In this document: one piece after another, positions 1,072 through 34,397 of the stretch
Layout: each line of letters starts with the position of its first letter
Position numbering within the stretch: the stretch's first letter is position 1
DNA from: Bacilli bacterium
GTDB taxonomy: Bacteria > Bacillota_I > Bacilli_A > RF39 > UBA660
NCBI GenBank assembly: GCA_035379765.1
Contig: DAOSVX010000001.1
Location: forward strand, 1-39,812
Length of the DNA: 39,812 bases
Direction: 5' to 3'
Program-made: the position numbers and the translations under genes
The notes under the pieces: generated by a model
What the model was told of the DNA's origin: nothing
Databases searched by the model: none
What the model saw: only the letters and a program-made list of their open reading frames with translations

Positions 1072-1150
1072 GGGGAATTAGCTCAGTTGGATTCAGAGCA
1101 TCTGCCTTGCACGCAGAGGGTCAAGGGTTCGAGTCCCTTATTCTCCACCA
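1072..1150 (+). tRNA. tRNA-Ala (anticodon UGC), CCA encoded
   Basis: The cloverleaf folds by eye. Acceptor GGGGAAT pairs with ATTCTCC and includes the G3:U70 Ala identity pair. D stem is GCTC/GAGC with an 11-nt D loop. Anticodon stem is TCTGC/GCAGA with loop CTTGCAC (anticodon TGC). T arm is AAGGG-TTCGAGT-CCCTT, followed by discriminator A and CCA. Confidence 0.9.
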
Positions 1151-7835: not shown

Positions 7836-9512
7836 ATGAAATTTACAAATGATACGACTTCTGTCGTTGCTTTAGGTGGTTTAGGCGAAGTCGGAAAAAA
7901 CATGTATTTAGTATGTCATAATGATGAAATAATAATTATTGATGCGGGAGTTATGTTCCCTGAAGATAGTTTATTAGGAATTGATTATGTTATTCAAGAT
8001 ATTAGTTTTTTAAAACAAAATGAAAAAAAAATAAAATGTTTAATTATTACTCATGGTCATGAAGATCATATTGGTGGTATACCATTTTTATTACAAAGTG
8101 TTAATATACCTAAAATATATGCTTCTAAAATAGCTACTGATTTAATTACTAAAAAATTAGTAGAACGTAATATTAATTATAATAATATGGAAATACTTGA
8201 TAAGAATACAATAATTAAAACTAGAAGATTTAGAATTAGTACAGTTATAATGACTCACTCTATTCCAGATGCTTTTGGGCTTATTATTGAAACACCTCAA
8301 GGAACTATTGTGGAAACCGGAGATTTCAAATTTGATTTAACTCCTGTTGGACCAATGGCTGAACTAGATAAGTTAGTTGAAGCTTCTAAAAGAGGCGTTA
8401 AACTTTTAATGAGTGATTCTACTAATGCTTTAGTTCCCGGTTTTTCTAAGAGTGAAAGCATTGTTGATACAGCTTTAAATGATATCTTTGCTAAACATTT
8501 AGGAAGAATTATTATTGCTACTTTCGCTTCTAATATCTATCGTTTACAACATATAATTGAAACCTGTAAGAAAAACAATCGAAAAATAGTTACCTTTGGG
8601 CGTAGTATGGAAAATGCAATTAATATCGCTATTAAAAATAATTTAATAACTGATGAATCAATATTTATTGATATAAATACTGCTAACAATTTAAAAAAGA
8701 ATGAAGTGTGTATATTATGTACCGGTAGTCAAGGAGAACCTTTAGCAGCTTTATCAAGAATTGCTAACGGGACTTTTAAACAGATTAATTTGTTAGATGA
8801 TGATTTAGTTATCTTTTCATCTAGTCCAATACCTGGTAATGCTCATTCTATTAATAGAATTATTAATAAATTGTACTTAAAAGGTGTTCAAGTATACACC
8901 AATGAAAGTCAAAGTGATATTCATACTTCAGGGCATGCTAAGATGGAAGACTTAAAATTGATGTTAAGATTAGTTAAACCTGAGTATTTTATGCCTATGC
9001 ATGGTGAATATAGAATGTTAAAACAACATGCTGATTTGGCAGTATTATGTGATGTGCCAAGAGATCATACTTTTATTTTAAAAAATGGTGATGTTTTAAC
9101 TTTAACTAAAGATAAAGTAGAACAAACAGGTTCTGTCCAAGCTGGTGATGTTTATGTTGATGGATCTAGAGTTGGTGATGTCGGTAGTGCTGTTATAAAA
9201 GATCGTAAATTAATGAGTCGAGATGGTATTTTAGTAACTATTTTAAATATTGATCCTATTAGAAGAAAATTAATAATTAAACCAAATATTACGACAAGAG
9301 GATTTATCCTAGTTAATGAAAATGCTGAACTAATTAAAAAGATCGAAGATAAAGTAACAGAAATAGTTAATAAGGCTTTAGATAATAAATCTTATAACTT
9401 TGTGGATTTAAAAAACCAAATTATTTTAGAATTACTGCCTTTCTTAAATGAATTAACTGGTAGGAGACCAATTGTTCTTCCCGTTATTATGGAAGTAAAA
9501 GAAAGCAACTAA
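7836..9512 (+). CDS. rnj: Ribonuclease J
   Basis: 558 aa with the metallo-beta-lactamase motif THGHEDHIGG, beta-CASP architecture and a typical RNase J length. Confidence 0.9.
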   Translation: MKFTNDTTSVVALGGLGEVGKNMYLVCHNDEIIIIDAGVMFPEDSLLGIDYVIQDISFLKQNEKKIKCLIITHGHEDHIGGIPFLLQSVNIPKIYASKIATDLITKKLVERNINYNNMEILDKNTIIKTRRFRISTVIMTHSIPDAFGLIIETPQGTIVETGDFKFDLTPVGPMAELDKLVEASKRGVKLLMSDSTNALVPGFSKSESIVDTALNDIFAKHLGRIIIATFASNIYRLQHIIETCKKNNRKIVTFGRSMENAINIAIKNNLITDESIFIDINTANNLKKNEVCILCTGSQGEPLAALSRIANGTFKQINLLDDDLVIFSSSPIPGNAHSINRIINKLYLKGVQVYTNESQSDIHTSGHAKMEDLKLMLRLVKPEYFMPMHGEYRMLKQHADLAVLCDVPRDHTFILKNGDVLTLTKDKVEQTGSVQAGDVYVDGSRVGDVGSAVIKDRKLMSRDGILVTILNIDPIRRKLIIKPNITTRGFILVNENAELIKKIEDKVTEIVNKALDNKSYNFVDLKNQIILELLPFLNELTGRRPIVLPVIMEVKESN

Positions 9513-9549
9513 AAAGGATATTAAATAAAAATATCCTTTTTGTTTTTTT
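9512..9549. terminator. Bidirectional intrinsic terminator between rnj (+) and the DGR RT gene (-)
   Basis: A perfect 10-bp stem AAAAGGATAT / ATATCCTTTT (9512-9521 / 9531-9540) is followed by a T-run. Confidence 0.6.
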
Positions 9550-10597
9550 AAATTTTTTTGGTTATTATATCTTTTCTATCAATTTTCTTATACATTTTTT
9601 GTTTAAACAAAAAACTATTTGCATGCCCTGCATGAGCTACAAAACTATTCCATTCTAATAGCATTTTATGTTCATTTAATCTTTCTATTGAATTAAGTTT
9701 ATTCCACAATTTTATTTTCTTTTTTATTTGTTTCTTTGACCTAATTTTTAATAATTTATGGGTTTCATATATTATATAACCACAAAAATTAATTCCTAAT
9801 TTGTTTGGGTAATATTTGCTCTTTTTATTTAATTCTACTTTTAATCTTGTTTTTAAAAATTCTTCTATTATCCCCATTATCTTTTTTGCTTCTTCTTTAG
9901 ATTCTAGTAAAATAACAAAATCATCCATATACCTAACATAATATTTTATCTTTTGTTGTTCTTTTATATAATGATCTAAAACATCTAAATATATATTAGC
10001 AAAATACTGACTTGTGTAATTTCCAATTGGTATACCTTTATTTTCATCAGCAAATATAAATTTTTTTGTTAAAACCAATAATTTTTTGTCACTTATCATA
10101 TTTAACATAATATTTAATAAAATAGTTTTATCGATATTATGAAAAAAACCTTTTATATCGCATTTCAATATATAGTATTTATTGTATCTGCGTTTCATTT
10201 GTTGCATATATTTTTGAACTTTTGCAACTGCACTATGGGTTCCTCTATTGTCAATACAAGCAAATGTATCCGATATAAATCTTTGCATAACATAAGGCTT
10301 TATAAATTCATAAATGTACCATTGCTGAACTATTCTGTCCCTTAATGGTAAAGCTTTAATAACCCTTTCTTTCGGTTCATTTATAACAAATGTTTTGTAT
10401 TCTCCCATTTGATATATTCCCTTTTTTAATTGGTTAATTATATTCCATAAATTAGTTTCCAAATCTATACTAAAAATTAACACCTCCTTCTTTTTCGTTT
10501 TATTTTTTATTGACCTTTCGTAAGCTTGTAACATTTTTTCATACGTTAAATTTTTATAAAACAAGTTTTTTATTGTTTTAGACATGAATTTATCCAC
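9548..10597 (-). CDS. DGR-type reverse transcriptase
   Basis: 349 aa. It has the RT motifs LPLRDRIVQ, GIPIGNYTSQYFANIYL (the IGxxxSQ signature that distinguishes DGR RTs from group II intron QGxxxSP) and RYMDDFVIL (YxDD). There is no maturase or endonuclease extension. It overlaps the 3' end of avd by 28 nt. Confidence 0.9.
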   Translation of the reverse strand: MDKFMSKTIKNLFYKNLTYEKMLQAYERSIKNKTKKKEVLIFSIDLETNLWNIINQLKKGIYQMGEYKTFVINEPKERVIKALPLRDRIVQQWYIYEFIKPYVMQRFISDTFACIDNRGTHSAVAKVQKYMQQMKRRYNKYYILKCDIKGFFHNIDKTILLNIMLNMISDKKLLVLTKKFIFADENKGIPIGNYTSQYFANIYLDVLDHYIKEQQKIKYYVRYMDDFVILLESKEEAKKIMGIIEEFLKTRLKVELNKKSKYYPNKLGINFCGYIIYETHKLLKIRSKKQIKKKIKLWNKLNSIERLNEHKMLLEWNSFVAHAGHANSFLFKQKMYKKIDRKDIITKKI

Positions 10598-10926
10598 CCA
10601 CCTAGTAAGTTACATATATTCATTATTTTTTTACTCCATGCCGCATAGTTTTTAATATTAATATACTTCCTTTTTTTTGAAACTCTTATTAAAACTTTAA
10701 GCATTTTTAATGATACATCCAGCTCACTCAGTACTCTTATTCTGCTCTTCGTGTCTCTTGATTTTTGAGCTCTTATTATTAGTTTCATCCCATCATAAGT
10801 GTTATTTTTTATTTGCACACAAATGTTATTCTTTTCTATCTTCGGATACTTAACTAATATACTTTCAGTATAATATATTAACTCTAAATATTGCTTATAT
10901 ATAAGTAAATCTTCCAAATTATACAT
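10570..10926 (-). CDS. avd: Avd-like accessory variability determinant (four-helix-bundle / 23S rRNA IVS protein family)
   Basis: 118 aa, predicted all-helical and basic. Size, the YPKIEKNNICVQIKNN pattern and the position immediately upstream of, and overlapping, the RT all fit Avd. Confidence 0.75.
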   Translation of the reverse strand: MYNLEDLLIYKQYLELIYYTESILVKYPKIEKNNICVQIKNNTYDGMKLIIRAQKSRDTKSRIRVLSELDVSLKMLKVLIRVSKKRKYINIKNYAAWSKKIMNICNLLGGWINSCLKQ

Positions 10927-11287
10927 TAAGTACTTCTTTTAATTCTTTTAATAACTTTAACGCTTTTAAAGGTGTTGTGTTATCTATATCTAAATTTTTT
11001 ATTTTATTTAATAAATTTCTTTTTGCTTGTTCCACATCAATTTTATCTATTATTTCTACAACTAAATTTAAATTTTCAAATATATTCGTATATTTTTCAA
11101 TAGAATTAGTTGGAAACCCACATTTTACAACTTCGTCATTCAGTTTAGTTAATTTTAAGGTGGTTATTTTATTTATATTCTTGGCATCTTCATCCAAAAA
11201 TAAATAAAAATTCCCACATTTAAACAAATAGTATTTACTATTATCTATTTGTTTTAATTCTAAATATTTTTTATATAATTTACCCAT
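10919..11287 (-). CDS. Mini-MutS-like DGR accessory protein (MutS domain I plus the MutS C-terminal helix motif)
   Basis: 122 aa. Residues 5-38, YKKYLELKQIDNSKYYLFKCGNFYLFLDEDAKNI, align with E. coli MutS 14-47, [41 protein letters not shown]...CGFPTNSIEKY aligns with ISLTKRG...AGIPYHAVENY. The C-terminal NLDIDNTTPLKALKLLKELKEVL aligns with the MutS end [23 protein letters not shown]. The RBS AGAGGAG lies upstream, and the gene overlaps avd by 8 nt. Confidence 0.7.
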   Translation of the reverse strand: MGKLYKKYLELKQIDNSKYYLFKCGNFYLFLDEDAKNINKITTLKLTKLNDEVVKCGFPTNSIEKYTNIFENLNLVVEIIDKIDVEQAKRNLLNKIKNLDIDNTTPLKALKLLKELKEVLNV

Positions 11288-11515
11288 TTTTTCTCCTCTT
11301 TTTATTCTTTTTGATAGAAAAAAGGTAGTATTGTATATACTATTCCCTATTTTCCATAAAATTTCATTTTCGCCATTTTGTTACTCATATAATTTTATTA
11401 TTAATGTTTTAGTTCTCTTAAAGAACGGGAACTAAACTTTTACTATAAACATTTCACTATAATATCCTTGAATATTATAACCTGAATGAAGAATTTCTTA
11501 TATATAGTAATCTCA

Positions 11516-11648
11516 CAACACAAGACCGCGCCACGATATGTTGCTGTTCGCGTTCCCGTTCGTATTGTTGAGATTGAACCCACCGGCCCCTACACCGTTG
11601 TTATAGTTGCCTCCACGTATGAACCATGGATTAGTCGCATTGACAAAA
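11516..11648 (-). repeat. DGR template repeat (TR)
   Basis: This non-coding 133-bp copy of 11851-11983 has no indels. On the minus strand it holds 12 AAY codons in the VR reading frame. 15 of the 17 differences from VR are at TR adenines. Confidence 0.9.
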
Positions 11649-11730
11649 AGTTTTTTACAGCTAGTCCCCAGCAATTTAACACATTTGTGTATAAATCTCT
11701 ATAATAAGCACCATCTCTATTCTTTATCTA

Positions 11731-11760
11731 TACGAGCCCCAAAAAAGTGTGGGGCTCGTA
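11731..11760. other. GC-rich 10-bp perfect hairpin between VR and TR
   Basis: TACGAGCCCC-(10 nt)-GGGGCTCGTA. No U-tract follows immediately on either strand, so it is not a canonical intrinsic terminator. Confidence 0.5.
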
Positions 11761-11828
11761 TGTTCTCATACTTTTTTTGTTTTACTACTTTGTTTTCTTC
11801 TTGTTTCTAATTTCTACGTTCAGAGTAA

Positions 11829-11847
11829 TCTTAGGCTTCGCCTAAGA
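11829..11847 (-). promoter_or_regulatory. Hairpin/cruciform element immediately 3' of VR (candidate DGR target-recognition element)
   Basis: On the minus strand, TCTTAGGC-GAA-GCCTAAGA forms an 8-bp stem that includes the target TAG stop codon. It starts 4 nt after VR/TR homology ends and has no counterpart next to TR. Confidence 0.6.
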
Positions 11848-13578
11848 AGTCAACACAAGACCGCGCCACGATATGCTGCTGTTCGCGCGCCCGTGCGTAA
11901 TGTTGAGACTGAACCCACCGTCCCCCACACCGTCGCCATAGTAGCCTCCACGCAGGAACCATGGATTACGCGCAGTGACAAAATTATTCCAGTCTTTATA
12001 CCAGTAATTTGTCTCTCCTAAGGCTTCTCCTAGATTACTTGTATTACTCTGCCAACTTGTGGTTATATATAATTTATAATATTTGCTATTAGGATAATCT
12101 AGTCCGGTGGTATTACTTGTTATACCTGAATCACATCCTGTATATGTTGGATCTCCATATATTCCCTTATACCCACTGTGATATATGTTACATCTACCGG
12201 AATATAAATTAGATGATGCATCTGTATATACTCCCATTTGATATTCCCATGCTCCTCCACTCATATCAAATATGCCATATATATTCCCGGTTGTACTTTG
12301 GGGATATGAGCTTACTCCACTTCCATAAGCTATTTCACAACTGGATGTTGCTGCAGCATTTGCAGCACTTGCTCCACATCCGGTTGTATAGTTACTATTA
12401 TTGTTTATTCTTATCTCATCGTTTATTCCATATTCGGAATAACTTAAATATACTACTGCTCCCCAGTCTACATTCTTACTCATTCTACTCTCTGCACTTA
12501 TTCCATAAATTGAGTCTGTTCCAAATTTTAATGATGTTATAAATTCTGTCGATACATTTTGATTTCTTAATGATGCGACATTTGGTTTTATGGTTGGGCT
12601 TACATCTGTACAGTTAGCTTCACTTGGACTTGTTGCACATGTACTTCCTGCTAACGGTGTTGTTTCAAATTTTCCTACCCAGATTCCATTTAATTCTATT
12701 CCATTATATGTGAAAGCGGGATGAGTTAACTCTGTTCCATTAGTACTTCCTGTACTTTTGGTTGTATAGGCGTTTTCAAATGTTATACTTATACTTTGAG
12801 GACAATTCGCTGTACAAGTTGTATCATCACTATATGTTGCTGCTGTTCCATCTACATTAAATAAGGTATATCTATATCTTGGTATCCATACTAAATATGC
12901 TAAGATATCTGCTTCGGCTACTGTTACTCCATTATTTGTTTCATAGTATGTTCTCGTCTCAGTTCCACTTTCTTTTACTAATACTACATTAGCCCATTGT
13001 TTATTTTCATAGCTATACCAACTACTACTCGTTGGGCTTACTGTTGTTACTGTTCCATCATTTCCTATTGTTACAGCGATCATTCCCGTAGAAATTCTTG
13101 GGTAAGCTCCATTTAAGATACTTTCTTTATACACGCTATAACTTGCTATTAATCCTGAACAGCCATCAAACCCTGATGTTTCTGTTTGCAGTGTGGTATC
13201 TACTTCTACTCCTCCTAATGTACTTCCTGTTACTGAGTTCTTACCATTTGTATACCATATTACATTGGTATCTCCTATTAATACTGAGCCTTTATAACTA
13301 CTACTAAAGCTTTTATCGACATATCCTGCTGCTTCTAGATATTCGATACTATAGCAATAGCCACTTTCTGTACTTCTGGTTAAATCATTATTTAATAAAT
13401 CATCAGCATAAGCTGATTTAGCTGCTTTACCGATATTCTCGGCTTCTATCTCAAAAGCATTAGCTTTAGCATTATCCATCATTTTTAAGACACTTGGGAC
13501 TGCTAGAAGAACAAGAACTGCTAGTATGACTATAACTGCTAATAATTCTACTAATGTAAAACCCTGCTTTTTTTTCAT
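11842..13578 (-). CDS. DGR target protein: prepilin-type N-terminal cleavage/methylation domain plus a C-terminal FGE-sulfatase/C-type-lectin-like variable domain
   Basis: 578 aa. The N-terminus MKKKQG|FTLVELLAVIVILAVLV matches the class III (type IV pilin/pseudopilin) signal G|FTLxE. HPAF...GIWVGKFETT and IFDMSGGAWEY resemble FGE-like domain motifs (compare DMSGNVWEW). The VR lies at the extreme C-terminus. Composition is rich in S/T/G/Y/N, unlike the K/E/I-rich neighbouring proteins. Confidence 0.9.
   Translation of the reverse strand: MKKKQGFTLVELLAVIVILAVLVLLAVPSVLKMMDNAKANAFEIEAENIGKAAKSAYADDLLNNDLTRSTESGYCYSIEYLEAAGYVDKSFSSSYKGSVLIGDTNVIWYTNGKNSVTGSTLGGVEVDTTLQTETSGFDGCSGLIASYSVYKESILNGAYPRISTGMIAVTIGNDGTVTTVSPTSSSWYSYENKQWANVVLVKESGTETRTYYETNNGVTVAEADILAYLVWIPRYRYTLFNVDGTAATYSDDTTCTANCPQSISITFENAYTTKSTGSTNGTELTHPAFTYNGIELNGIWVGKFETTPLAGSTCATSPSEANCTDVSPTIKPNVASLRNQNVSTEFITSLKFGTDSIYGISAESRMSKNVDWGAVVYLSYSEYGINDEIRINNNSNYTTGCGASAANAAATSSCEIAYGSGVSSYPQSTTGNIYGIFDMSGGAWEYQMGVYTDASSNLYSGRCNIYHSGYKGIYGDPTYTGCDSGITSNTTGLDYPNSKYYKLYITTSWQSNTSNLGEALGETNYWYKDWNNFVTARNPWFLRGGYYGDGVGDGGFSLNITHGRANSSISWRGLVLTS
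11851..11983 (-). repeat. DGR variable repeat (VR), covering the last ~44 codons of the target gene
   Basis: See TR. It encodes FVTARNPWFLRGGYYGDGVGDGGFSLNITHGRANSSISWRGLVL, whereas the TR-encoded sequence is FVNATNPWFIRGGNYNNGVGAGGFNLNNTNGNANSNISWRGLVL. Confidence 0.9.
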
Positions 13579-13601
13579 CCTCGTCTCCTCCTTTCTTTTT
13601 T

Positions 13602-13631
13602 ATTATACTTTTTCAATTGCTGGTTTGTCAA
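13602..13631 (-). promoter_or_regulatory. Consensus sigma-A promoter of the DGR target gene
   Basis: On the minus strand, TTGACA (13631-13626), an 18-nt spacer and TATAAT (13607-13602). The RBS AAAGGAGGAG follows, 8 nt before the ATG at 13578. Confidence 0.65.
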
Positions 13632-13642
13632 CTATGCATTCA

Positions 13643-13662
13643 AAAAAAGCACCAAGTGCTTT
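13643..13662 (-). terminator. Intrinsic terminator of rny
   Basis: On the minus strand, AAAGCAC-TTG-GTGCTTT is followed by TTTTTG directly after the rny stop codon. Confidence 0.6.
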
Positions 13663-15216
13663 TTATTTGGCTTCTTCTTGAGCTCTAGTTTCTCTAATAA
13701 CTATTATTTTTATAGTACCTGGGTATTGCATTTCTTTTTCTATTTTTTCTTTCATTTCCCGAGCTATTTTATAACTAGTTACATCATCTACATCTTCTGG
13801 TTTAACTATAACTCTAACTTCTCTACCAGCTTGCATTGCATAAGTTTTTTCTACTCCTTCATAAGAATTACCAATGCTTTCTAGTTGTTCTAATCTCTTA
13901 ACATAGTTTTCTAATGAATCATTTCTAGCTCCTGGTCTAGAAGCACTTAAGGTATCAGCAATTTGTACTAATACAGCAATTACTGAACTAGGTTCTTTAT
14001 CACCATGATGAGACAATATAGCATTTAATACTACTTCATCTTCGCCATAACGACGAGCTATTTCTTCTCCTATTTCAACATGGCTTCCTTCAATTTCGGT
14101 ATCAATTGCTTTTCCTATATCATGAAGCAATCCAGCCCTTTTAGCTATAGTAACATTTTCACCTAATTCACTAGCCATAATACCAGCTAAATTAGCTACT
14201 TCTTTAGAATGCATTAAAGCATTTTGCCCATAACTAGTTCTAAATTTTAATTTCCCAATTAAATTTACTAGTTCCGGATCTACTTTCGTAATCCCTAATT
14301 CATATAAAGCTTCTGTACCTATTTCGGTAACTTTGGTATTCATGTCTTTACAGACTTTATCATATAATTCTTCAATACGAGAGGGATGAATTCTCCCATC
14401 TTTAATTAAAGATTCAATAGTTACTTTAGCTATTTCTCTACGGAATGGATCAAATGAAGAAATAACAATGGCCTCGGGGGTATCATCAATTATTAAATCT
14501 ACTCCTGTTACCGCTTCAATGGTCCTTATGTTTCTTCCTTCGCGACCAATTAAGCGCCCTTTCATTTCATCATTTGGTAAATCAATTACACTAACTGTTT
14601 GTTCTGTGGTAACATCATTAGCATATCTTTGCATGCTACTAACTAACATATTTTTGGCTTTTTTATCAACCTCTAATTTTGCTTCGCTTTCTTTTTCTTT
14701 AATATAAGAAGCGATTTCTTTTGCCATCTCACCTTCAACCCGTTTTAATATCATGTCATGAGCTTCTTTTTTAGAGACTTTGGCAACACCCTCTAAAACT
14801 TTAATTTCTTCCTTCAACAATTCATCCATTTTAGCTTCTTTTTTTTGGACTTCTTTTTGCATATTACTTAAATTATCATCTTTTTGATTTAAAAGATTAT
14901 CTCTATTTTGAAGCATTTCTTCACGTTTATCTAAATTTTTCTCACGTTGCATTAATCTATCTTCATTTGATTTTAGTTCATTCTTTTTTTCTCTAATTTC
15001 CTTTTCGGCTTCTTGCTTTAATTTATAAGACTCTTCTTTTAATTCTAAAATACTATCACGCTTATATTTATCAGCTTCTTTTTTAGCCTCAGATAATAAT
15101 TTTTCCACTTTTCTATCAGTTTGCTTACGACTTACAACAAATATCGTCGCTGTAACTCCTCCGCCAACTGCCAATCCAATTATTGAAGTTAAAATGGAGA
15201 AAGTATTAAATACCAT
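13663..15216 (-). CDS. rny: Ribonuclease Y
   Basis: 517 aa with an N-terminal TM helix, a coiled coil, a KH domain ([12 protein letters not shown]) and an HD domain (LLHDIGKA). Confidence 0.95.
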
Positions 15217-17628: not shown

Positions 17629-17967
17629 AATATCTTATAAGCCACGTTCTGTACCTATTTCTAGGCGGCAAATATTTATCTACTATTACTAGTTTCTTAT
17701 ATAAGTTTTTTATTCCTTATATAAAAACTCCCCTACCTAATTTGGGTTTCTCACTCGCGGGGTTTACCACGTTCCACTATTAAAGTTTCCTCTAACACTC
17801 GTCTCTTTGGCACTTTTATATCTAATTTAACCATTTGAGGTTATTTCGAAGCCGTTAGTTAAACTACCAGTGGTTATCCCACTGCGCGAACACTACAACC
17901 ATTACAGGATTGTGTGAGCATGGACTTTCCTCTGCACAAAAATTTATGCAGCATTTGCCCAGATATT
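17629..17967 (-). ncRNA. rnpB: RNase P RNA (bacterial type B)
   Basis: The minus strand contains GAGGAAAGTCCATGCTCAC (P4 5' strand), GGTAAACCCCGCGAGTGAGAAACCCAAAT and ACAGAACGTGGCTTA (P4 3' strand). The terminal AATATCT / AGATATT pair as P1. It sits next to gpsB, as in B. subtilis. Ends are approximate (+/- 10 nt). Confidence 0.85.
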
Positions 17968-33755: not shown

Positions 33756-34397
33756 TTAACTATTTTCGTTATTTATTTTATTAGCTATTACTTCTACTTG
33801 TTTTTCTACTTCTTTTAAACTTTTAGATGTATCTATTTCAAAATTAATATATTGTTTAGGAATTGTTTTTTTCCTTTTTTCCATATTTAAAAAAGTACTA
33901 ACACCAGCTCCAGAGTAATCGATGCTTTCATCACCATCAACATAGTAATCAGTTATTACTTTTCTATTTTTTTCTCTTTCTAAAACAATTTCTCTATCAC
34001 ATATTAATTTTATTATGTAATATTTAAGATGATATTTTTCTATTAAAGAAATTTTTTCTTTAAAATTATTAGCAACATTACCATCTATTATACAATTATT
34101 ACCATTTTTAATAGTTTCTTCAACTCGATAATTTTGTATTTTAGAAGTTAGTTTTTCCCTCTTTTCGGGATTATTAGGAAAACTGGTTCTATATATAAAC
34201 TGACGTATTTTATCTTTGCCTAATACTTTAATATCTAATTTTTTACTAAACATTTTAGCTACTGTGGATTTGCCCATCCCAGATATAGCATCAAACAAGA
34301 TTACATAAGGATGTTTTTTATTACCTTTAGAAATTGGATTATATTTTAAAAAGTAATTATATATTTCATCTTCAGTTTTCAAAAATTTATATTCCAT
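33756..34397 (-). CDS. P-loop kinase/ATPase-like protein (AAA_33 or zeta-toxin-like fold)
   Basis: 213 aa with Walker A ISGMGKST near residue 40. No further family assignment is possible. Confidence 0.55.
   Translation of the reverse strand: MEYKFLKTEDEIYNYFLKYNPISKGNKKHPYVILFDAISGMGKSTVAKMFSKKLDIKVLGKDKIRQFIYRTSFPNNPEKREKLTSKIQNYRVEETIKNGNNCIIDGNVANNFKEKISLIEKYHLKYYIIKLICDREIVLEREKNRKVITDYYVDGDESIDYSGAGVSTFLNMEKRKKTIPKQYINFEIDTSKSLKEVEKQVEVIANKINNENS

Follow-up and report, generated by a model that had tools for sequence, protein, structure and literature searches.

A chromosomal diversity-generating retroelement with a predicted type IV pilin-like target between rnj and rny of an uncultured low-GC Bacilli bacterium

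What occupies the roughly 4.1 kb between the genes for RNase J (rnj) and RNase Y (rny) in the chromosome of this Bacilli bacterium, is it at work, and which protein does it alter? The DNA analyzed here is a stretch of 39,812 nt (contig DAOSVX010000001.1, positions 1 to 39,812; hereafter the window). A previous inspection of its letters and open reading frames (ORFs), carried out without database searches (the sequence-only reading), had described the minus-strand segment 13631→9548 as a diversity-generating retroelement (DGR). We conclude, with a probability of about 0.85, that this segment is a complete, self-contained chromosomal DGR of the Msl-Avd-RT type ("Architecture D" of Wu et al.; Msl, MutS-like; RT, reverse transcriptase), active in nature or very recently so. 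An ORF scan and repeat comparison gave the minus-strand order promoter, target gene with a terminal variable region (VR), hairpin, template repeat (TR), structured spacer, Msl, avd and RT. The parts that the sequence-only reading had listed as present and co-oriented on this strand, the consensus promoter among them, were all recovered where it had placed them by ORF scan, repeat alignment and domain searches. Contigs and loci from other assemblies that were compared with the window carry the labels L001 to L173. The features of the element and its edges are as follows:

13602..13631, minus strand: promoter-like site, TTGACA-18-TATAAT, with 12/12 consensus matches, just inside the insert and past the rny terminator hairpin; putative promoter of the cassette
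11842..13578, minus strand: target (variable-protein) gene, 578 aa (ORF scan, Pfam, TIGR02532, AlphaFold2 (AF2) model, Foldseek)
11851..11983, minus strand: VR, 133 nt, ending two codons before the end of the target ORF (aa 533-576 of 578) (gapless alignment to TR)
11829..11847, minus strand: post-VR hairpin with an 8-bp stem TCTTAGGC/GCCTAAGA and loop GAA (-10.4 kcal/mol, z = -2.8)
11730..11761, minus strand: GC-rich 12-bp hairpin between target gene and TR (-21.9 kcal/mol, z = -6.2)
11516..11648, minus strand: TR, 133 nt (gapless alignment to VR)
11306..11515, minus strand: structured spacer RNA 3' of TR, a DGR RNA "Sp"-type region (RNAalifold, covariance model)
10919..11287, minus strand: Msl accessory gene, 122 aa (Pfam MutS_I, AF2, Foldseek)
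10570..10926, minus strand: avd (bAvd-like), 118 aa (Pfam bAvd)
9548..10585, minus strand: DGR reverse transcriptase, 345 aa from ATG 10585 (bRT match, RVT_1); alternative start GTG 10597 (349 aa, 9548..10597)
9510..9542, bidirectional: terminator-type hairpin that separates the stop codons of rnj and RT, at the left insert edge (-11.4 kcal/mol, z = -4.4, then a U-run); not in the empty sites of L008 and L009
13644..13664, bidirectional: ancestral terminator hairpin beside the rny stop, at the right insert edge; near-identical to the sole intergenic hairpin of the L009 empty site and terminator-like by scan

VR (11983..11851) aligns with TR (11648..11516) over 133 nt with no gaps and 17 mismatches, 15 of which fall where TR has A and 2 where it has C. 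As TR contains 35 A in 133 nt, this bias has a hypergeometric p of 1.3e-8. The 39.8-kb window holds one VR and one TR, and no further copy of either was found in it. Read in the frame of VR, TR gives LFVNATNPWFIRGGNYNNGVGAGGFNLNNTNGNANSNISWRGLVL, with 12 AAY codons, and a stop codon cannot be reached by any adenine substitution. The 18 variable codons of VR allow for some 10^18 different peptides. The last 21 nt of TR (TCGTGGCGCGGTCTTGTGTTG) are GC-rich, contain no A and are common to VR and TR.

Contigs of the same species from other samples were retrieved by exact-protein look-ups: L001, L002, L005 (ERZ27257475), L006 (JGI 3300010350) and L007 (JGI 3300009772). The comparison of alleles concerns assembled consensus sequences over the stretch 13700..11300 (2401 nt). 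The cassettes of L001 and L002 are identical to that of the window, and L005, L006 and L007 carry the same locus with differences from the window that lie almost all within 11991..11872. Three VR alleles were distinguished, one common to the window and L006, and one each in L005 and L007. Any two alleles differ at 23-24 positions in VR, compared with 0-3 across the remainder of the stretch (~2.2 kb). Where TR is assembled (window, L005, L007), the contigs have one and the same TR sequence despite their differing VRs. Relative to TR, the differences comprise 15 A + 2 C in the window and L006, 21 A in L005, and 14 A + 1 C in L007. The sequence-only reading had proposed asking whether VR polymorphism is confined to positions that are A in TR; applied to assembled contigs, this comparison placed the variation in VR, with 28/32 polymorphic sites at TR adenines. 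A further target protein, P0001, is 100% identical to that of the window over aa 1-529 and carries 17 changes in aa 530-570. As far as the aligned sequences can tell, the VR/TR pattern is the signature of mutagenic retrohoming, unlike that of an ordinary duplication.

The RT belongs with those of DGRs. Its best match among solved structures is 8ub7 (328-aa chain), over the full length and with E = 2e-47; group II, retron, Cas-linked and Drt RTs match at 9e-16 or worse. By tblastn, the 8ub7 chain is 100% identical to brt and is thus BPP-1 bRT. RVT_1 is matched with E = 1e-19 and the YMDD motif is present. The motif IGNYTSQ aligns to IGSLTSQ of bRT, and IGNYTSQYFANIY stands against IGSLTSQLFANVY. 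In DGR RTs, [I/L]GxxxSQ occupies the place where group II and retron RTs have QGxxxSP. A retron, group II intron or defence-RT (Drt) identity was considered and rejected, since the corresponding models scored far below their own cut-offs and below bRT; the RT does not side with retrons or group II introns, a grouping that the sequence-only reading had named as speaking against a DGR. Matches to phage RTs (162 records) are all below 40% identity. The avd product scored 74.4 bits with Pfam bAvd (cut-off 40) and 72.9 bits with NCBIfam DivGenRetAVD, slightly below the cut-off of 80; a sequence search of Avd against PDB gave no match.

Msl and avd overlap by 8 nt, as had been read before. The 28-nt overlap previously given for avd and RT is obtained only with the GTG start of the RT; the real start is most likely ATG 10585, which makes the overlap 16 nt, because the BPP-1 bRT alignment begins at residue 5 of the GTG-started ORF, because recorded gene calls use ATG 10585, and because homologous cassettes also overlap by 16 nt. 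An exact look-up found the recorded RT protein with the ATG start and none with the GTG start.

Which protein, then, is diversified? The target begins with MKKKQG followed directly by FTLVELLAVIVILAVLVLLAV, which is a canonical class III (prepilin) signal peptide: a short basic leader, Gly, and FTLVE with Glu at +5. It scored 32.6 bits with N_methyl (PF07963; cut-off 21.2) and 28.0 bits with TIGR02532 (cut-off 16.3). Among 60 target homologues, M1, F7, T8, L9 and E11 are invariant, and G6 is kept in ≥90%. The AF2 model (mean predicted local distance difference test, pLDDT, of 81) shows an alpha1 helix at aa 9-63 (55 residues) and a confident module at aa 150-578. Compared with PDB by Foldseek, the model matched TaqVP (5vf4, E = 7e-9), Mtd (1yu1, E = 9e-4) and then enzymes with the formylglycine-generating enzyme (FGE) fold. 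Of the profile searches that the sequence-only reading had suggested, those with RVT_1 and bAvd were positive; the Pfam FGE-sulfatase match of the target remained weak (E = 9e-4, 19.4 bits, cut-off 23.3), and it is the fold comparison that supports this fold instead. The modelled structure thus supports a C-type-lectin/FGE-type fold for the C-terminal module. Judged from signal peptide and model, the target would be a modular type IV pilin-like protein, a feature overlooked in the sequence-only reading.

Members of the target family are numerous, with more than 5900 matches at E ≤ 1e-5, most of which have N_methyl; homologues are often titled "prepilin-type…" or "type II secretion system protein [Bacilli bacterium]". 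Most of 80 metagenomic target-family loci have no DGR nearby, and roughly ten have an adjacent TR and/or Msl/avd/RT. With most of these loci devoid of a DGR, the DGR has evidently been coupled to a pre-existing adhesin-like family. In distant relatives, DGR-less target-family genes, some in tandem, lie beside rnj, rny or recA (L106 7001-8665, L055 10740-11459, L164 5288-8871, L100 1169-2173), and the family seems to recur near the rnj/rny/recA block even without a DGR. At least 12 relatives (L013, L019, L024-L026, L028, L031, L044, L050, L055, L077 and L081; e.g., L026 8492-9016) have solitary small pilin genes (N_methyl), without adjoining assembly genes, in the interval from ftsY to rnj; in the window this interval is only 125 bp long. 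No other ORF with a prepilin motif was found in the window.

The 122-aa Msl protein matches Pfam MutS_I (E = 3e-11), and its AF2 model (pLDDT 88) consists of domain I, the part of MutS that recognises mismatches, and two C-terminal helices. Foldseek superposes the model on MutS domain I of E. coli, Thermus and others with a root-mean-square deviation of 1.8-2.5 Å over ~87 aa and a probability of 1.0. In 20 homologues, F27 (equivalent to Phe36 of E. coli MutS) is invariant and the position of Glu38 is always Leu/Ile. Msl is similar to a single domain of MutS without being a MutS itself: it keeps the intercalating Phe but lacks the Glu of the Phe-X-Glu motif and the ATPase. The C-terminal helices (10919-11030, aa ~85-122), with the motif …IDIDNTTPLKALKLLKELK…, align weakly to the extreme C-terminus of E. 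coli MutS. This part of MutS is its dimer/tetramerisation region. On the strength of this alignment, Msl may be a "mini-MutS", composed of domain I and an oligomerisation hairpin. Only 33 homologues of Msl were found at E ≤ 1e-3, and all of those whose context was examined (L170-L173, L108, L138, L155, L088) lie in DGR cassettes; the Msl-bearing cassettes of relatives that were examined stand at housekeeping loci. The cassette of L172 (7001-10832) and L173 has two MutS_I genes, one directly before the RT and a second that is encoded, like bAvd and a 406-aa ORF, on the other strand; it lies beside rplT-rpmI-infC and represents an unusual divergent Msl-type architecture.

The RNA elements complete the cassette. 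The post-VR hairpin begins 3 nt past VR, includes the target stop codon and has no counterpart after TR. Related cassettes (L110, L116, L155) have hairpins of other sequence, with GAA/GTA loops, at the same position and never after TR, so that the hairpin is conserved in structure and not in sequence. A non-mutable GC-rich 3' end of VR and TR, and a hairpin downstream of VR only, have precedents with known roles in BPP-1. By analogy, the A-free 3' end and the post-VR hairpin observed here would serve as target-recognition elements. The hairpin at 11730-11761 carries its U-run in the loop; as no U-tract comes after the stem, it was passed over in the terminator scan. It differs from a canonical terminator and may act as a read-through attenuator for the target gene or mark the 5' boundary of the TR RNA.

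The spacer between TR and the Msl start (228 nt, 11515..11288) is conserved among related cassettes. RNAalifold on 5 cassettes predicted two helices, the first pairing 11510-11503 with 11447-11440 and the second pairing 11398-11387 with 11367-11356 around the conserved loop GAGTAACAAAATGGCGAAA (11386-11368). With a covariance model based on these five cassettes, the element was also detected, at 122 bits, in L170 and L171, two loci that had not been among its seeds. In the spacer alignment 93.5% of cells are paired and 16/21 pairs show compensatory change, against 31-50% paired in slid controls; as the sequences are few and the alignment was fitted to the model, this covariation is supportive and not conclusive. 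At the gathering threshold, an Rfam scan found nothing in the cassette. A relaxed scan gave a full-length (1-144) alignment of RF02921 (RT-14) at 11355-11491 with 32.8 bits in the window and 36.9 bits in L155, both below the gathering score of 48.1, and membership in RT-14 is therefore not established. The spacers of the window and of L155, just 3' of TR, share with RT-14 a 3' stem-loop with the loop UAGUA..GAA. Motifs RT-1 to RT-19 were found beside RT genes; RT-10 lies in the TR-RT spacer of BPP-1, and others were speculated to serve DGRs (PMC5737381, Weinberg et al., 2017).

From these parts a sequence of events can be proposed. The cassette would be transcribed from its own putative promoter, and TR with the structured 3' spacer would constitute the DGR RNA; the structure is seen to be conserved, and the role assigned to it follows the BPP-1 paradigm. 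RT-Avd would copy TR into cDNA and misincorporate opposite template adenines, a biochemical step suggested by the adenine signature of VR. The cDNA would then replace VR, presumably directed, as in BPP-1, by the shared A-free GC-rich 3' end and the hairpin found downstream of VR only. Msl probably would bind the densely mismatched cDNA:VR heteroduplex, protecting it against host mismatch repair or competing with that repair. The idea is motivated, though not proven, by the 5-10-fold lowering of retrohoming by host MutS in Bacteroides. The expected product is a modular type IV pilin-like protein whose predicted C-terminal C-type-lectin/FGE-fold module contains the 18 variable codons. Its most likely role is that of an adhesin, displayed on the surface or on a pilus, whose ligand binding can be readjusted quickly.

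A bolder reading, whose chances we put a little under even, is that the DGR hypermutates the tip module of a Com/type IV pilus (T4P)-like pilin and so forms a programmable pilus adhesin, that the thousands of homologues combining pilin and lectin fold, mostly with no DGR in cis, are an unrecognised adhesin family of this clade, and that Msl is a dedicated anti-mismatch-repair factor by which the heavily mismatched heteroduplex survives. Several results weigh on the proposed events and product given above. Neither the window nor the neighbouring loci, including those beside L106 and L026, were found to contain prepilin peptidase or pilus-assembly genes; because the pilus machinery was not seen in the window or beside the inspected relatives, filament display is plausible and unproven. 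The pilin head is modelled at low confidence, as aa 64-146 comprise four short predicted strands with a pLDDT of only 33-65. Approximately 45 target-family loci with ≥2 kb of downstream sequence have no adjacent DGR, and the target family is therefore independent of DGRs. For Msl, no experimental test of its role in any system was found in the literature searched.

The first two of these observations, together with the solitary position of family genes among housekeeping genes, are what would be expected if the DGR were real and active but its target were not a filament subunit, the hydrophobic N-terminus being only the membrane anchor of a receptor or adhesin, or the protein being released after cleavage. 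We regard this alternative as unlikely, though it survives better than the others considered below. It has to account for a canonical class III signal peptide that scores above curated cut-offs, with F+1 and E+5 invariant and G-1 kept in ≥90% of the 60 homologues, and for a ~55-residue alpha1 helix followed by beta strands, which is the layout of a pilin. In addition, relatives carry other small pilin genes, and large modular pilins that are polymerised into pili have been documented in monoderms (PMC8179133).

Where did the element come from? The cassette has RNase J on one side and RNase Y, RecA and PgsA on the other. The window contains ffh, ylxM, ftsY, rnj, the cassette, rny, recA, pgsA, gpsB/divIVA, recU, a class A penicillin-binding protein gene, nth and dnaD, and further cca, ezrA, rpsD, mscL, ABC transporter genes, udg and clpB. 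All Pfam-matched genes of the window outside the cassette are housekeeping or ordinary cellular genes, and five ORFs have no Pfam match. Pfam searches of the 39.8 kb found no capsid, tail, integrase or lysis gene, which, with the core genes rnj, rny and recA at its flanks, bears out the cellular, non-phage setting that had been proposed. Relatives of the host were drawn from an RNase J scan that covered one genome per species, in which the host groups with uncultured low-GC Bacilli; they are titled "Bacilli bacterium", "Candidatus Coprovivens" (filed by NCBI under Bacilli incertae sedis), "Firmicutes bacterium CAG:582", "Mycoplasma sp. CAG:956" and "uncultured Tenericutes".

The two closest species by RNase J identity, L008 (89%) and L009 (86%), have convergent rnj and rny 26-28 bp apart (L008 10675-10702, L009 2579-2604), with one bidirectional hairpin in between. 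This is the empty rnj-rny junction that the sequence-only reading had suggested looking for in related genomes, and it substantiates the insertion. The window retains this hairpin next to rny (13644-13664) and has a second one next to rnj (9510-9542); from this comparison, the extra DNA amounts to ~4.1 kb and consists of the cassette alone, from its own promoter to its own terminator. The two genes are adjacent in about a dozen more distant species too, and the junction is empty (26-60 bp) in about 15 species. Other relatives (L010-L087, downstream of rnj) have 1-8 kb of unrelated DNA at the junction, or often have rny elsewhere than beside rnj. A gain of the cassette in this lineage is the parsimonious explanation, and the rnj-rny junction is clearly a variable spot. 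A related RT in L085 was considered as a same-site insertion near rnj and rejected, as it is located by scpAB/pnp/rpsO.

A scan of 2.9 million viral contigs (IMG/VR) found the target family at 2 loci, both distant, and the RT at none. The nearest relatives in viral collections are the IMG/VR contig L088 (1-11531) and L089, with 48% identity in the RT and 47% in avd. Their DGR has the order target-Msl-TR-avd-RT, and its target has no prepilin signal. Its neighbours, two Fic genes and the genes for a large serine recombinase and a Bro-N protein, place this relative of the same DGR lineage in the setting of a mobile element or prophage. This setting suggests a route of horizontal spread, although the element concerned is another one. 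The setting also lends something to the view that the DGR of the window derives from a prophage remnant or other mobile element and that its target is a former phage receptor-binding protein, as do the absence of the cassette from the two closest species and the different chromosomal sites of related cassettes. We nevertheless hold such an origin to be very unlikely: the ~4.1-kb insert holds DGR parts alone, no gene for integration, capsid, tail or lysis occurs in the 39.8 kb, the target has a prepilin signal that its L088 homologue lacks, and the family is almost absent from the viral contigs.

Returning to the activity of the DGR, some observations limit what can be claimed for it. Only three distinct VR alleles were recovered, all of them assembled consensus sequences, and as the evidence consists of consensus contigs, activity within a single population is only inferred. 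One allele is common to two samples (the source of the window and JGI 3300010350), so VR turnover is not fast enough for every sample to differ. Four polymorphic sites (11985, 11969, 11921, 11902) correspond to TR cytosines or belong to the 5' edge of the repeat, where the match is imperfect. The strain polymorphisms at 11985 and 11991 are located just 5' of the clean VR/TR homology, where TR has a run of six A; VR may sometimes reach ~11991, or else these two are ordinary substitutions. The related locus L110 (1503-2653) has VR, TR and spacer intact, with only fragments of Msl (aa 1-59) and RT (aa 301-339) detectable, and these remains suggest a cassette of the same type in decay. That the cassette of the window is itself a decayed or silent relic, its VR/TR pair an ordinary duplication and the strain differences the result of mutation, diversifying selection or recombination, would fit the shared allele, the few non-A differences and the decay of L110, but is extremely improbable given four intact and conserved ORFs, 28/32 polymorphic sites at adenines of an invariant TR, 23-24 differences in 133 nt against 0-3 in the 2.2 kb outside VR, and in-frame AAY codons from which no stop can be reached.

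Cellular DGRs, Msl genes and DGR targets among pilus adhesins (type V, in Bacteroides) have already been published, and the recently active chromosomal DGR described here is a member of a well-described class. The sequence-only reading had set it apart from the phage tail-fibre paradigm of BPP-1; the chromosomal location stands, whereas a cellular location alone is not distinctive, since nearly all members of two of the six global DGR clades are cellular (PMC8144416). In Architecture D, MSL is a MutS-like protein of 112-283 aa that always occurs with avd and never with HRDC; it was found in 16/372 DGRs, including the Legionella DGR (PMC5758913, Wu et al., 2018). The cassette fits this description, with a small MutS-like gene (122 aa) adjoining bAvd and without HRDC. 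Pilins are not mentioned in the main text of that survey (PMC5758913), and this exact element was not found in the literature searched.

With BPP-1 the cassette shares a full-length RT match, a bAvd-family protein, adenine-specific transfer from TR to VR, a C-terminal VR in a C-type-lectin fold (predicted here), a hairpin after VR and a structured spacer RNA 3' of TR. It differs in that BPP-1 is phage-borne, has a tail-fibre target and the order mtd-avd-TR-brt and lacks Msl, whereas the order here is TR-spacer-Msl-avd-RT, the location chromosomal and the target pilin-like. Among PDB structures, that of the Thermus aquaticus protein TaqVP (5VF4) comes closest to the modelled C-terminal module of the target (E = 7e-9, probability 1.0); sequence identity is only 16%, and TaqVP (~380 residues) is matched by the C-terminal module alone of the 578-aa target.

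The closest functional parallel is provided by the Bacteroides DGRs Bfr, Bth and Bun, in which host MutS suppresses retrohoming 5-10-fold and which have 30-45 TR adenines and 10^14-10^25 peptides (bioRxiv 10.1101/2024.11.15.621889, Macadangdang et al.). Both are chromosomal and combine RT, an Avd-like protein and Msl with adhesive pilus targets that have a C-terminal VR, the pilus assignment being a predicted one in our case. Theirs, however, are tip pilins of type V pili in diderm Bacteroidota, encoded at the ends of pilus operons; here the putative pilin module is type IV (class III signal) and is encoded by a solitary gene between rnj and rny of a monoderm low-GC member of the Bacilli. PilB and PilC of Streptococcus sanguinis, a monoderm, have a class III signal peptide and a small pilin module fused to a bulky C-terminal ligand-binding module, for which a location at the pilus tip was proposed (PMC8179133, Raynaud et al.). 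By its gene and model, the target would have this modular pilin architecture as well. Their modules (vWA, concanavalin-like lectin) are genetically fixed, in contrast to a C-type-lectin/FGE fold that would be rewritten by a DGR. A GspG-type pilin domain appears in one published listing of rare domains that hold a VR (PMC11661182), and the literature searched yielded no study of a type IV pilin as DGR target or of DGRs in this clade (RF39).

If the pilus-adhesin reading is true, the element would be the type IV counterpart, in monoderm low-GC Bacilli, of the type V pilus-tip diversification of Bacteroides. It touches on the hypervariable adhesin potential of type IV pilins in monoderm gut or digester bacteria, on the function of Msl, given that host MutS suppresses retrohoming, and on the function of the conserved RNA 3' of TR outside the BPP-1 model. 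As a DGR of 4.1 kb from promoter to terminator it is a clean minimal natural example, with activity visible as a natural allele series in public assemblies, an exact empty site in sister species, a conserved spacer RNA and a type IV pilin-like target; it makes a good model, yet would be no surprise for a DGR specialist. Being compact and self-contained, it is a candidate both for reconstitution and for the development of directed-evolution tools.

Elsewhere in the window, a class B RNase P RNA (17633-17966, minus strand, 251.7 bits) and a tRNA-Ala(UGC) (1072-1150, plus strand) fit a Bacillota host with the standard code. Between an ABC transporter gene and clpB (33756-34397, minus strand) lies a gene for a P-loop kinase of 213 aa, which matches Zeta-toxin/AAA_33 weakly.

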